In this document: positions 16,460-22,955 of the stretch, in pieces
Layout: every line of letters starts with the position of its first letter
How positions within the stretch are numbered: position 1 is the first letter of the stretch
Virus record (IMG/VR): IMGVR_UViG_3300037485_002668
Coordinates: 1-64,000 of that record
DNA: 64,000 bases
Direction: 5' to 3' (one strand)
Origin: a virus
Translations under genes and position numbers: made by a program
The notes under the pieces: generated by a model
The model's database searches: none
Told to the model about the DNA's origin: nothing
Seen by the model: only the letters and a program-made list of their open reading frames with translations

Positions 16460-16488
16460 TTGACATTATAATTTTATTTACGTATATT
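16460..16488 (+). promoter_or_regulatory. sigma70-type promoter for the ncRNA cluster
   Basis: TTGACA-N17-TATATT, 22 nt upstream of the first RNA. Confidence 0.8.
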
Positions 16489-16510: not shown

Positions 16511-16664
16511 GCGGGACTAGATCAAAGTCTGGCCGTAAGGCTGGATTTGTAATTAACCTGAATTACCCACAAGGTTACCTTGTTTTTAAGTCAGGTCACA
16601 TGCAAATTGGTAGATCAATAGATTTCTAATCTATACGTTCTCGGTTCGAGTCCGAGGTCCCGCT
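16511..16664 (+). ncRNA. tRNA-Arg(TCT) scaffold with an ~81-nt insertion in the D-loop
   Basis: GCGGGAC-TA-GATC-AA-[16526-16606]-TTGGTA-GATC-A-ATAGA-TTTCTAA-TCTAT-ACGTT-CTCGG-TTCGAGT-CCGAG-GTCCCGC-T. Confidence 0.8.
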
Positions 16665-16672
16665 CTGATTTT

Positions 16673-16806
16673 GGGGAGATGGCGAAATGGCAAACGCAAA
16701 CGTATTGGAACGTTCATTATTTGAGCAGGCTTTTACGCCCACGAGTTACGCTCGTTCATGTATAAGCTTACATGCAATTTTCCAGGTTCGAATCCTGGTC
16801 TCCCCA
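16673..16806 (+). ncRNA. tRNA-like RNA with a 6-nt anticodon loop and a ~67-nt variable region
   Basis: GGGGAGA-TG-GCG-AAATGGCAAA-CGC-A-AACGT-ATTGGA-ACGTT-[16715-16781]-CCAGG-TTCGAAT-CCTGG-TCTCCCC-A. Confidence 0.75.
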
Positions 16807-16878: not shown

Positions 16879-16900
16879 TTTCATGGTATCTCCAAAATAG

Positions 16901-16931
16901 AAAAAGCCGTTCAGCGATGAGCGGCTTTTTT
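16901..16931 (+). terminator. intrinsic terminator (bidirectional)
   Basis: aaaaagccgttca-gcga-tgagcggcttttt. Confidence 0.8.
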
Positions 16932-17078
16932 ATTTTATCCGGCCGGTGACGAAACCAGCCTTTTTGATTGTAAATTTGGTGAAAGTTAACGGGCGGTTAT
17001 GAGTTTTAAAAATTTGGGTGATTTTGGTGAAATAAAAAGGCCGGAAACGGGTATCCGGCCGGTGGGGAAAGTAGACCT

Positions 17079-17411
17079 TTAGGAGTCGGTTCTTTTATAA
17101 AGTCCGACCATGCCCATTGAAATAAGCTTGTCTACGGAACATTTTTCAGTTGCCGCTGGCATATCGATTTCATGTTTGTATACCCACTGAAGGTAATACT
17201 TCCATTCGTTTAGCCGTTCAAAGGGGTCTGTACTTCTATACATGTGCCAAGTTCGGGCGTCCACTTTTTTAGGATCGTAAACATTAGCGACCCATCTTTT
17301 TTTGCAAATACCGTTGGTAAAATGATCTGCCAAAACGTTTAACTCTTTACAGGATTGGCAATCAAATTTTTCGGTTTGAGAACCGTCAATTGTTTTGAGA
17401 ATATCATTCAT
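17079..17411 (-). CDS. hypothetical protein
   Basis: ORF with GAGG RBS. Confidence 0.55.
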   Translation of the reverse strand: MNDILKTIDGSQTEKFDCQSCKELNVLADHFTNGICKKRWVANVYDPKKVDARTWHMYRSTDPFERLNEWKYYLQWVYKHEIDMPAATEKCSVDKLISMGMVGLYKRTDS

Positions 17412-17466: not shown

Positions 17467-18381
17467 TTACAGTTCTAAGTTGACCGGTGTTCCAAAGAAA
17501 TCCACAACTTCCTGGTCGGGGGAGTCATGGAAATAAAACATGATCGTTGTTTTGATGTCGGCATGGCCGAGATATTTTTGAATATACTGGGCGGCGGAAA
17601 TCCCTTTGCCAGAAGACTCCAATATTTTTTTCAGGTGCATGGCGCAGGAATGCCTAGCCGTATGCGTGCCAATGACAAATCCGGTATGCGCCATGCCACG
17701 CCGTAAAATATTGAAGTAATTCGGCTGGCATAATCGGGTACCGCGTTTTGATTCAAATAGCCACACTTTAGAATTGCATACTTCCTTGATTTGGTTGAAC
17801 AGGTCTACTTTACAATAGACCGTGCGGCTTTTGTGACCCTTGCCATCCTGTACTACGACTTGGATGGCATTTTTATTTTGGGAAAGCTCACAATCCGTTA
17901 GCTTAACGTTTACGGCTTCGTTGATTCGCATTCCCGTTTGGAATTGGAACAGGAATAACAGCCGTTCTCTTGCTGGTAATGAATCGGCATGTTTATAAAT
18001 TTCCTCTTCCGTGAGGTATTCATTCCGTCTGATTGCCCGGTCTTGTTTAATGCAGGGAGCGATTCGGGCGATGTGCATTTTTAAGGCCGCGATGGATGTA
18101 ACTCTTCCGTCAAATTCAGGCTGGCCTTGAATGAAATATAATAGCGCGGCTTTGCCGATTTCACGGGCCGAGGCTCCCCAGTTGGAACGCGATTCAAAGA
18201 AACGCTTGATTGTTTCCAGGCTTATCGTTAGCCCGTACTTTGCCATGAATTCGTTGAATCCGATAGCAATTCTTTTATATTCGTAGATTGTTTTGTCAGC
18301 CAGGGGACGGATAGACGTGGGTTGTACGTCCAGGCGAAGTTGACTAATGGTAGTGGTTTGGGTGGTGGTTAGGGTTTCCAT
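17467..18381 (-). CDS. tyrosine recombinase/integrase
   Basis: TGMRINE, GKGHKSR, HTARH, LGHADIKTT..Y catalytic motifs. Confidence 0.9.
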   Translation of the reverse strand: METLTTTQTTTISQLRLDVQPTSIRPLADKTIYEYKRIAIGFNEFMAKYGLTISLETIKRFFESRSNWGASAREIGKAALLYFIQGQPEFDGRVTSIAALKMHIARIAPCIKQDRAIRRNEYLTEEEIYKHADSLPARERLLFLFQFQTGMRINEAVNVKLTDCELSQNKNAIQVVVQDGKGHKSRTVYCKVDLFNQIKEVCNSKVWLFESKRGTRLCQPNYFNILRRGMAHTGFVIGTHTARHSCAMHLKKILESSGKGISAAQYIQKYLGHADIKTTIMFYFHDSPDQEVVDFFGTPVNLEL

Positions 18382-18408
18382 TGCTTTTTCCTTTCGTTGT
18401 TTGTTTAA

Positions 18409-18461
18409 CCTGTGACCGGCCTATCAAGACCGGTTTCGCTTTTATAAGCTCATCAGACAGG
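18409..18461 (-). ncRNA. hammerhead ribozyme, type I
   Basis: CCTGT-CTGATGA-GCTT-ATAA-AAGC-GAA-ACCGGTCT-TGAT-AGGCCGGT-C-ACAGG: complete core with three stems; GUC cleavage predicted between 18414 and 18413. Confidence 0.9.
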
Positions 18462-18463
18462 GT

Positions 18464-18670
18464 TTATTTGTACTCCCTGGAATAACCTTCAAAGTCTTTA
18501 GCTTCCTGTAAACGTTTCGATTCGTTGTTTAAATAATTCCGGGTTTCTCGGAATTTTTTGTAGAACGCTCTAATCGTTGTATAACCGTTTCCGATTTCTT
18601 CAATCGCTTCATTATAAGCAAATTCAGATTCACTCCGAATGATACTCAGTAAGGTTTGATCTTTTTTCAT
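18464..18670 (-). CDS. hypothetical protein
   Basis: ORF with GAGG RBS. Confidence 0.55.
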   Translation of the reverse strand: MKKDQTLLSIIRSESEFAYNEAIEEIGNGYTTIRAFYKKFRETRNYLNNESKRLQEAKDFEGYSREYK

Positions 18671-18683
18671 GGTATTGTTCCTC

Positions 18684-18911
18684 TTAGTTAATTTTAAGGG
18701 TGGTATCTTGTTTTAATTGAATCCATTCAGCCAAAGTGATTTTATCGTCTAAAATTGCTTGCAGTACATAGCGTTTAATCTTTTCAAGCATTTCATTCTG
18801 GTGGTCACGCGCTGAAAAATTATTGCTATCAGCAAAGTAATTGCGCTTTGTCAAGGTGTTGACATATTCCTGCGCCAGGGCTTTCATATCTTTAATGTTT
18901 TGATTGTTCAT
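18684..18911 (-). CDS. hypothetical protein
   Basis: RBS/start AGGAGTAAGCCATGAAC, identical to that of the 19221 gene. Confidence 0.6.
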   Translation of the reverse strand: MNNQNIKDMKALAQEYVNTLTKRNYFADSNNFSARDHQNEMLEKIKRYVLQAILDDKITLAEWIQLKQDTTLKIN

Positions 18912-18966
18912 GGCTTACTCCTATTGTTAACGGGACGTTCTCTGAACCCCGTATCGCAATGGGTAA

Positions 18967-19221
18967 TTATTTGGTTGCTAAGGCTTGACTAACGGCAGTC
19001 ATTAATGGATACATAATGTGCTGAGCTTCTTTCATCCAACAACGATTAATATATGCCCATTCACAAACTTTATGGCATATAGATAGCCAGTCATTTTTAT
19101 AAGCAATCCCTAAACATAAAACATCTTTCCAGTCAACGATTAATTGAATTTCAATCGCTTTATTGATAAAAATTTCAACTTCCTTCGGAATGTCGAATCG
19201 GGTGATTTCTTGTTCGTTCAT
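18967..19221 (-). CDS. hypothetical protein, first gene of the putative sigma54 operon
   Basis: RBS/start AGGAGTAAGCCATGAAC. Confidence 0.6.
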   Translation of the reverse strand: MNEQEITRFDIPKEVEIFINKAIEIQLIVDWKDVLCLGIAYKNDWLSICHKVCEWAYINRCWMKEAQHIMYPLMTAVSQALATK

Positions 19222-19273
19222 GGCTTACTCCTTGGTTAAGTTCAGGTTCGTTCTGTTTTACATTAATATATAT

Positions 19274-19289
19274 ATCAAATACCGTGCCA
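19274..19289 (-). promoter_or_regulatory. sigma54 (-24/-12) type promoter
   Basis: TGGCACGGTATTTGAT: GG-N10-GA with a perfect TGGCACG -24 box. Confidence 0.65.
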
Positions 19290-19398: not shown

Positions 19399-19583
19399 AT
19401 TGCAATTTGCAATGAAGATTTTTAAACTTTTCAAAATCACCACAAACCTTAACGCACCGTTCAATATTCACAATCCACCCAAATCTTGCATTTTGCAATG
19501 CACAATTCACGTTTTCAATCCAATCCGTCAAAATTCAACGGACACTTATCTAATCCCGTTTTGCCCAATCTTGTAAAATGCAA
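19399..19583. promoter_or_regulatory. three TTGYA-N3-TGCAA palindromes, candidate enhancer (UAS) sites
   Basis: At 19400, 19486 and 19571 (spacing 86 and 85 bp), in a gene-free region upstream of the -24 box. Confidence 0.5.
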
Positions 19584-21527: not shown

Positions 21528-21767
21528 TTAAACGAATAACCAGATTAAAAGGTTCCCCAAAACCACCACCAAAATAAGACATCCACCAGACCCAAAACCA
21601 GTCCCGTTCTTAAAATTCTTTTCAGCTTTTTCAAATCCAGCACAGCGCTTGCAGGGTTTCTTATCTCCTTTATAGGATTCGCCCGTCTCATAATGTGGCA
21701 CGGATACGAAACTTGTGTCGTTGCCACAGCCAGGGCAGGTAGTTTTAAATGTCCAACGATTACTCAT
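21528..21767 (-). CDS. Zn-ribbon plus C-terminal TM microprotein
   Basis: CPGC...CKRC...GGC followed by a hydrophobic tail. Confidence 0.65.
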   Translation of the reverse strand: MSNRWTFKTTCPGCGNDTSFVSVPHYETGESYKGDKKPCKRCAGFEKAEKNFKNGTGFGSGGCLILVVVLGNLLIWLFV

Positions 21768-22707
21768 AACTTTTACCTAAATTATTGGTTTTCTTTGCGT
21801 ACCAGCCTCTTAAATTTAGATATTGAATTTTATAACATAATGACCGTTCACTTATGCCCAAAAGTTTGGCCGCGCTTTTTTGGAGTCCTCTGGCAACGAT
21901 AAGCGCCTTTTGGATTTCATGAATTTCCAGATCCCGCAGGGGCGTAACAGACCTAGATTCACCCATCACAACGCTGGTTTCAAATACATCAAAAATGATA
22001 TCAAAATGCGTGATAGTTTCGCCGTTGGATAACAGGCTGGCGCGCTGAATGACGTATTTGAGTTCCCGAATGTTACCTGGCCAGCAGTAATTACAAAGCA
22101 ATTCATTAGCTTCTAAAGTTAATTCTTTTTTACAACGGAATTTATTTAAAAAAAAGTTTGCTAAGTTAACAATATCGTTTTGACGCTTGCGTAACGGGGG
22201 GATTGTAAATACAATTCCACAAAGTCGGTAACGTAAATCTTCACGCAGTTTGCCTGGGTTGCCGTTCGTGGCGCTAATGATACGGAAATCTGAATTTTGT
22301 TCAATGATACTGCCGACGCGCCGATACTTTTTTGTTTCCAGGACGGTCAAAATTTTAGCCTGCGAGGCTGTGCTTAAATCAACCACCTCGTCTAAAAATA
22401 AAGTACCGTCATTGGCGACAGAAAGTAAACCCCGTTTTTCGGTGGAACCGGTGAAGGCACCCTTGATGTTCCCGAAAAGTTCAGACTCGAAAAGGGTTTC
22501 CGGGATAGCGGCGCAATTAATAGACACTATTTTATTACTGGCGCGATGGCTATATTGGTGAATTGCGTTTGCCAGGACATCTTTACCGACACCGGTTTCG
22601 CCGATTATAAATACGGGAATATCGCTGACGGCGATTCGTTTTGCAAGTTCGTTAATTTTTCGTATTTCAAGATGGCAGGAATTTCCGAAATCAATTTCAG
22701 GCGTCAT
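21760..22707 (-). CDS. sigma54-dependent enhancer-binding protein (AAA+ and Fis-type HTH, no sensor domain)
   Basis: GETGVGKD, INCAAIPETLFESELFG..KGAFTGS, LFLDE, WPGNIREL, C-terminal AAKLLGISERSL. Confidence 0.92.
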   Translation of the reverse strand: MTPEIDFGNSCHLEIRKINELAKRIAVSDIPVFIIGETGVGKDVLANAIHQYSHRASNKIVSINCAAIPETLFESELFGNIKGAFTGSTEKRGLLSVANDGTLFLDEVVDLSTASQAKILTVLETKKYRRVGSIIEQNSDFRIISATNGNPGKLREDLRYRLCGIVFTIPPLRKRQNDIVNLANFFLNKFRCKKELTLEANELLCNYCWPGNIRELKYVIQRASLLSNGETITHFDIIFDVFETSVVMGESRSVTPLRDLEIHEIQKALIVARGLQKSAAKLLGISERSLCYKIQYLNLRGWYAKKTNNLGKSYE

Positions 22708-22955
22708 AAAATAGTTTTCAAAATACCAAAAGCAATTGGGATAAAAATAATTATGGAACAAAAACCAGCAGATCGTTTAACGGGCGTTCCCTGATCATCA
22801 ACGGGGTCATCTTCGCCTAAAAATGAATCAGATCCCTCAGTACAATCGTGACAGGGGGAATTGGTTTTTAACTCTTTATCGGCGCCGATACAAAAGCCAG
22901 ATTCGATTTCTTTGCCACACTTGGGATTGCAGCAAATAATTCTATACGTTCCCAC
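22704..22955 (-). CDS. Zn-ribbon plus C-terminal TM microprotein
   Basis: CNPKC...CHDC...GFC followed by a hydrophobic tail. Confidence 0.65.
   Translation of the reverse strand: MGTYRIICCNPKCGKEIESGFCIGADKELKTNSPCHDCTEGSDSFLGEDDPVDDQGTPVKRSAGFCSIIIFIPIAFGILKTIL

Follow-up and report, generated by a model that had tools for sequence, protein, structure and literature searches.

Does a self-cleaving RNA define the 5′ end of a phage recombinase mRNA, and is such a cut a means of controlling recombination or a general way of processing a polycistronic message? The question is raised by a hammerhead motif on the minus strand of IMGVR_UViG_3300037485_002668, an IMG/VR virus record of 99,244 bp with direct terminal repeats that is rated complete. 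The first 64 kb of this record were analyzed and are called the window below. Two sequencing runs that share a large portion of the window's words are both sediment metagenomes.

Anatomy and significance of the motif

The motif sits in the 82-nt spacer that separates a 68-aa ORF (18670-18464) from a 304-aa recombinase ORF (18381-17467), all on the minus strand. Its parts and the sequence that leads to the recombinase start codon are listed below, with nucleotides written as RNA.

18409..18461, minus strand: type I hammerhead ribozyme motif (sequence, minimum-free-energy fold, descriptor null, covariance models R1 and R2; Rfam HH9 below its gathering score)
18461-18457 with 18413-18409, minus strand: stem I, C18461-U18457 pairing with A18413-G18409, 5 bp
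18456-18450, minus strand: core CUGAUGA (C3 U4 G5 A6 N7 G8 A9), present in the sequence
18449-18446 with 18441-18438, minus strand: stem II, GCUU with AAGC, 4 bp, loop AUAA
18437-18435, minus strand: GAA (G12 A13 A14), present in the sequence
18434-18427 with 18422-18415, minus strand: stem III, A18434-U18415 through U18427-A18422, 8 bp including one G-U, loop UGAU
18414, minus strand: C17 (position H17, in the GUC triplet), next to A15.1-U16.1, which is A18434-U18415
18413..18414, minus strand: predicted self-cleavage site GUC^A, between C18414 and A18413, placed from the hammerhead consensus
18382..18413, minus strand: leader of the recombinase mRNA after the predicted cut, 32 nt, A-rich, predicted to be almost unstructured
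18393-18389, minus strand: RBS AAGGA (Shine-Dalgarno), read from the sequence

The elements follow one another as the 5′ strand of stem I, the core, hairpin II, GAA, hairpin III, the cut site and the 3′ strand of stem I. Because stems II and III are capped by loops and stem I is the open stem, the motif is assigned to type I. All of the approximately 13 conserved core positions of a hammerhead are canonical in the window copy. The standard pairs adjacent to the core, which served as a rejection criterion in the survey of Perreault et al. (PMC3088659), are also present: A18413-U18457 (1.1-2.1), G18449-C18438 (10.1-11.1) and A18434-U18415 (15.1-16.1). The stop codon of the 68-aa ORF (18466-18464) ends 2 nt before stem I, and the predicted cut lies 32 nt ahead of the recombinase ATG (18381-18379). 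The original prediction had placed a complete type I hammerhead (CUGAUGA, GAAA, GUC and three stems) at 18409-18461 on the coding strand, between the stop at 18464 and the recombinase RBS, with a cut about 32 nt before the start codon; its coordinates are exact, every core position is there, and the placement agrees with the sequence.

When a 62-nt RNA carrying the motif was folded in isolation, the minimum-free-energy structure was the same three-way junction (-19.7 kcal/mol, z -3.0). A model-free type I descriptor (CUGANGA, a hairpin, GAAA, an A-U-closed hairpin, H, and a stem I of at least 4 bp) found one site in the 64-kb window, which is 18461-18409. In 300 first-order Markov simulations of the window the same descriptor found 0.01 sites per 64 kb, none of them with equally long stems. 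Covariance model R1, trained on 40 other phage hammerheads with the window excluded, scored the site at 48.1 bits (E 3e-10) as its sole match in the 99-kb genome, a score inflated by the fact that the training set has the window's stem II sequence in common. For this reason the independent model R2 was built from 17 hammerheads fitting neither search pattern, with only the two core-proximal pairs of stem III modelled. The window site reached 22.5 bits in R2 (E 0.006) and was again the sole match in the window.

The original prediction had proposed an Rfam hammerhead covariance search as a check. At gathering thresholds Rfam detected no hammerhead in the window, and Hammerhead_1 (RF00163) gave no match even in the sensitive scan, in which the best hit was Hammerhead_HH9 (RF02275) at 23.5 bits with a gathering score of 52. 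Both families share the catalytic core and the three-helix junction with the window motif; HH9 has in addition a longer stem I that is missing in the window copy. We scored 25 R1-positive hammerheads from ten phage loci in the same way, and none of the 25 reached any Rfam hammerhead gathering threshold. Failure in Rfam is thus uninformative for this compact phage class, and compact phage hammerheads are under-annotated in viral metagenomes because the curated thresholds miss them.

In an alternative reading the site is no ribozyme at all, and an ordinary intergenic hairpin (a terminator, an attenuator or a protein-binding site) matches the core by chance. The missing Rfam hit speaks for it, but the sampled class members are missed equally. 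Against it stand the descriptor expectation, with 0 of 300 random sequences as good, and the return of the site as the only match by each of R1 and R2. The stem III hairpin, moreover, is followed by no U-run, and the terminator scan shows no minus-strand site there. We regard a chance match as very improbable; judged from its sequence and predicted fold, the motif is very probably a working hammerhead ribozyme.

Stem I of the window copy disappears from the thermodynamic fold once the context exceeds 100 nt. This behavior is typical of the class, in which the median stem I probability in long-context folds is 0.04 and 53% of the members fall below 0.05. Since about half of the class behaves alike, we rejected the loss of stem I as evidence against activity. 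The hairpin that competes with stem I in the long fold pairs CCCUG with a CAGGG that falls within the final codons of the 68-aa ORF. A translation-coupled switch through this hairpin was considered and rejected: the window ranks at 0.15 against shuffled flanks, and the median occupancy in the class is 0.48 vs 0.48, with no enrichment.

A compact class of phage hammerheads

IMG/VR was scanned with the core plus the window's stem II sequence, which returned 71 contigs. The majority of them carry complete type I hammerheads, whose stems I and III differ in sequence yet stay complementary. In an alignment of 40 class sequences, 97.5% of the cells are paired, a value that is partly circular because all 40 had passed a pairing descriptor; double-sided changes occur in 13 of the 16 pairs. 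Slid controls of this alignment are only 25-41% paired. A non-circular scan, in which nothing but the core and the stem III ends was prescribed, gave 32 loci (about 22 distinct sequences), and in all 32 stem I is paired and stem II covaries.

These hammerheads sit between genes. On the upstream side, 51 of the 71 class members follow a reading frame of 40 codons or more whose end lies no farther than 20 nt from stem I, with a mode of -1 to +2 nt. On the downstream side, an ORF starts at a median of 25 nt after the cut (IQR 20-31, range 0-82) in 58 of the 71. The window fits this layout, with a stop 2 nt before stem I and a start 32 nt after the cut. A metagenome scan with the window's stems II and III found two related contigs with the same order of stop, ribozyme, RBS and ATG, an 88-aa downstream ORF and unrelated flanks.

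The window copy has the type I topology, the 4-bp stem II, the A/U-rich loop and the long stem III of the class, which is found in marine and freshwater phage contigs, Flavobacteriales and CPR; the abutting upstream stop is likewise shared, and the class start lies mostly 20-31 nt after the cut. It also keeps the conserved A 5′ of stem I and an A-rich loop II. It differs in three respects. Stem I is 6 bp with a conserved distal G-C pair in the class, whereas the window has 5 bp and a C/U mismatch at that place. Loop II has 5 nt in the class and 4 nt in the window. Finally, class members form tandem arrays before small orphan ORFs, while the window has a single copy before a recombinase gene.

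Natural hammerheads need a tertiary contact between stem I and loop II to cleave fast at cellular Mg2+. With the distal mismatch in stem I and the shorter loop II, this contact cannot be assured for the window copy; examination of the stem I/loop II contact identified no covarying pseudoknot. These features, together with the single copy in the genome, would suit an intact motif of little or no biological role, recently acquired or hitch-hiking, whose cleavage at cellular Mg2+ is slow or absent. The searches for orthologues bear on the same point. The recombinase was used for a related-locus search and, like the 68-aa ORF, for word-based searches at the protein level; these returned the window itself only, as did blastn against GenBank phages. 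A second sediment study contains 18390-18700 in identical form, and the recombinase fragments there differ by about 14%; the contigs with similarity also included recombinase fragments that have diverged and a single relative of the 68-aa ORF, likewise diverged, which departs at 18509. Without an orthologue and with the second copy identical, the window's own hammerhead offers no covariation and no record of conservation. The reading of little or no role nevertheless has to face a core of about 13 positions that are all canonical, the strength of stems II and III, and a location, after the stop and ahead of the RBS, that reproduces the class geometry. Minimal hammerheads with canonical cores, as a matter of general knowledge, cleave in vitro. 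We consider that reading unlikely and keep to a working ribozyme.

The relative that departs at 18509 comes from freshwater sediment. It has about 85% identity to the 68-aa ORF over 18509-18645 and diverges completely on the hammerhead side, where 30 loose letters are visible; to judge from these, the ribozyme may be absent there or the junction may be different.

Many class contigs carry three or four tandem ribozymes between small genes, and the genes directly downstream of class hammerheads are small orphans. Arrays of three or four type I hammerheads between small orphan genes were seen in L006, L010, L011, L012, L025, L133 and L149, which are marine or freshwater phage contigs and MAG contigs. 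Cellular occurrences of the sub-class are mainly in Flavobacteriales and other Bacteroidota and in MAGs of Saccharibacteria and other CPR. On Flavobacteriales MAG contigs, a compact type I hammerhead lies directly 3′ of a TonB-dependent receptor gene at 17 of 28 cellular loci whose hammerhead is complete (among them L109, L110, L117, L118, L121, L123, L124, L126, L134, L138, L142, L146, L153, L154 and L156). In L110, for example, the receptor gene spans 398-2635 and the hammerhead follows at about 2648. The next ORF after these hammerheads encodes about 95-120 aa, is Cys/His-rich and matches no Pfam family. On the evidence of these contigs, linkage to a TonB-dependent receptor gene is a conserved non-phage context of the hammerhead; among the papers searched, none joins 'hammerhead ribozyme' with 'TonB-dependent'.

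The apparent transcription unit, the recombinase and the predicted effect of a cut

The genes and signals around the motif are listed in the order in which the minus strand is read.

21760-22761, minus strand: sensor-less sigma-54 activator (enhancer-binding protein; PF00158 E 3.5e-51, and HTH_8)
about 19400-19500: TTGCA-N3-TGCAA palindromes, 110-220 nt upstream of the promoter candidate, read from the sequence
19276..19289, minus strand: sigma-54-type -24/-12 promoter candidate TGGCACGGTATTTG, an exact TGGCAC-N5-TTG 55 nt before the first ORF
18967..19221, minus strand: 84-aa orphan ORF, first gene of the unit (ORF list)
18684..18911, minus strand: 75-aa orphan ORF, second gene of the unit (ORF list)
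18464..18670, minus strand: 68-aa orphan ORF, no homologue and no family (ORF list)
17467..18381, minus strand: Xer-like tyrosine recombinase, 304 aa (PF00589 E 1e-22; PHROG integrase families)
17079..17411, minus strand: 110-aa orphan ORF 3′ of the recombinase, on the same predicted 3′ cleavage product, no family or atlas lead
17039..17060, minus strand: intrinsic-terminator-like hairpin and T-run at the end of the unit (terminator scan)

The spacer between the 68-aa ORF and the recombinase contains neither a terminator-like nor a sigma-70-like promoter site on the minus strand, so transcripts that reach the recombinase RBS must traverse the ribozyme. The simplest reading of the locus is one apparent transcription unit, in the order promoter, ORF84, ORF75, ORF68, hammerhead, recombinase, ORF110 and terminator. 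The exact TGGCAC-N5-TTG occurs once in 64 kb on both strands taken together, and with about 0.5 matches expected by chance the weight of the promoter candidate comes from its position. As a separate observation, the activator, the lone -24/-12-type box and the palindromes look like a self-contained sigma-54 circuit within a phage. The regions that carry the RBS and start of the 75-aa and 84-aa ORFs (18895-18922 and 19205-19232) share 86% identity over 28 nt (GGAGTAAGCCATGAAC...), pointing to a duplication of translation-initiation modules.

Hammerhead cleavage leaves a 2′,3′-cyclic phosphate on the upstream end and a 5′-OH on the downstream end. In the nascent RNA of this unit, the 53-nt motif would fold and cut itself after C18414. 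The upstream piece would carry the three small genes and, at its 3′ end, a structured RNA consisting of nearly the whole ribozyme (stems II and III) with the cyclic phosphate; it is the type I topology that leaves most of the ribozyme on this fragment. The downstream piece would carry the recombinase and the 110-aa ORF, beginning with a 5′-OH and the five nucleotides of stem I, and its short unstructured A-rich leader of 32 nt would expose the RBS. Such a cut would uncouple the fate of the recombinase message, both stability and translation, from the upstream genes and would give it one 5′ end, whichever promoter made the transcript. The effect of a 5′-OH on RNA stability depends on the RNases of the host: the 5′-monophosphate-dependent RNase E spares an RNA with such an end, and in Bacillus the 5′-OH marks the glmS product for RNase J1.

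It had been proposed that self-cleavage frees the recombinase mRNA from the polycistron and gives it a 5′-OH end. The structural half of this proposal holds, in that the hammerhead lies inside one apparent unit with the same geometry as in the class; the freed end itself stands as a prediction, at A18413. We think it probable that the motif is a working type I hammerhead within a polycistronic mRNA of the phage, where it would serve as a generic processing or insulating device between genes, as in many phages. The proposal that the recombinase mRNA would be cut from the polycistron is well founded, yet the idea was already published in 2011 (PMC3088659).

In that study (Perreault et al. 2011, PLoS Comput Biol), polycistronic transcripts of about 2 kb were cleaved in vitro by hammerheads that occur in tandem in phages and prophages (PMC3088659). 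The window motif resembles these hammerheads in its canonical core, its position between cistrons, its proximity to an integrase-type gene and the proposed cutting into gene-length mRNAs. It is unlike them in that two or three ribozymes often flank a gene there and the window has one copy per genome, in that the window operon is apparently driven by a sigma-54-type promoter, and in that the window motif is known from sequence. The HHphage of haloviruses HF1 and HF2 lies 13 nt before the start codon of a helicase gene, and a mapped 5′ end falls within 3 nt of the cut (PMC3088659). As in the window, the ribozyme occupies the 5′ leader just before a start codon and cleavage defines the 5′ end of an mRNA; the HF1/HF2 RNA, however, is a core variant from an archaeal virus and heads its transcript, whereas the window has a canonical core that is internal to the operon, after three ORFs. 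The insulator RiboJ is reportedly an engineered type III satellite-RNA hammerhead with a hairpin that stays on the downstream mRNA. There too self-cleavage standardises the downstream 5′ end and uncouples it from the upstream context, but in the window, with its type I topology, the upstream fragment would keep nearly all of the ribozyme.

A narrower reading would make the ribozyme a control specific to the recombinase. It would set the recombinase level, and hence the outcome of lysis versus lysogeny or of integration versus excision, through a 5′-OH end and a half-life distinct from that of the co-transcribed small genes. In its favor, this is the sole hammerhead of the 99-kb genome, it stands directly before the recombinase, and its cut would part the recombinase and the 110-aa ORF from the three small ORFs. 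Many bacterial hammerheads, in addition, lie near prophage integrases (Perreault et al., PMC3088659).

We looked for such a link from both sides. On the ribozyme side, 98 ORFs directly downstream of class hammerheads were inspected (58 + 10 viral, 30 cellular), and none is a recombinase. Conversely, starting from the enzyme, we took 60 viral loci with a gene for one of its relatives (the closest with 29-38% identity) and searched them with R1 and the descriptor, adding a sensitive Rfam scan for the 14 best; 0 of the 60 had a hammerhead within 2.5 kb. The original prediction that cleavage could tune the recombinase level and the lysis/lysogeny outcome is not borne out by these counts, and with the small ORFs nameless as well, what speaks for it is adjacency.

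The enzyme itself looks active. Its best solved relative is the XerC-like PDB 4a8e, and an exhaustive HMMER search recovered a clade at 33-42% identity in whose alignment R152, K181/K184, H240, R243, H273 and Y283 are invariant. The protein is Xer-like and falls below every curated NCBIfam subfamily cut-off, so that a role in lysogeny is itself unproven; its function may be integration, resolution or inversion. Pfam, PHROGs, NCBIfam and a protein atlas gave no excisionase or regulator identity for the small ORFs of the unit, and none can be identified as a directionality factor. Control specific to the recombinase is in our judgment quite unlikely.

Its most elaborate form can be drawn by analogy with sib of phage lambda. 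The sib site lies downstream of int, where the host RNase III cuts it, and it affects read-through transcripts only. The hammerhead would be the ribozyme counterpart of sib, dedicated to controlling a recombination operon under sigma-54 after its transcription. By splitting the message it would fix how much recombinase and 110-aa product is made relative to the three small proteins, with a directionality factor perhaps among these three, and so bias integration versus excision. The likeness to sib retroregulation serves this idea only and consists in post-transcriptional control of a recombinase message by RNA cleavage; sib is 3′ of int and depends on host RNase III, whereas the window has a predicted self-cleaving motif 5′ of the recombinase. 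We regard this scheme as speculative and doubtful, and the generic processing or insulating device is preferred.

A review of 2019 held the biological purpose of such hammerheads to be still open (PMC6765202). Here a very probable self-cleaving ribozyme would define the 5′ end of a phage recombinase mRNA, and one further copy leaves the question of purpose unmoved. The phage does provide a clean single-ribozyme operon with its promoter type and terminator defined, which makes it suited to asking how a cut between cistrons affects each half of a message.

Other RNAs of the window

Elsewhere in the 99-kb genome, no other ribozyme of any class was detected at Rfam level. On the plus strand, a string at 16900-16965 that resembles a hammerhead was examined and rejected; it is a terminator-like hairpin, not a ribozyme, and no model matches it.

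Two tandem tRNA-like genes with large insertions lie at 16511-16806 on the plus strand. The first (16511-16668) has a tRNA-Arg(UCU)-like scaffold with an insertion of approximately 85-90 nt in the D-loop, read by eye and missed by Rfam and ARAGORN; the second (16673-16806) is found by the Rfam tRNA model at 41 bits and has about 65 nt after the anticodon arm. Group I introns were considered as the insertions and rejected, these being too short. A near-consensus sigma-70 promoter (16460-16488) lies upstream of the pair and terminator-like hairpins lie downstream. A third tRNA-like gene, with no ARAGORN call, is located at 79-208 on the minus strand (Rfam tRNA 35.9 bits), and within its anticodon stem UCAGG/CCUGA there are 63 nt where a loop of 7 nt would be expected.
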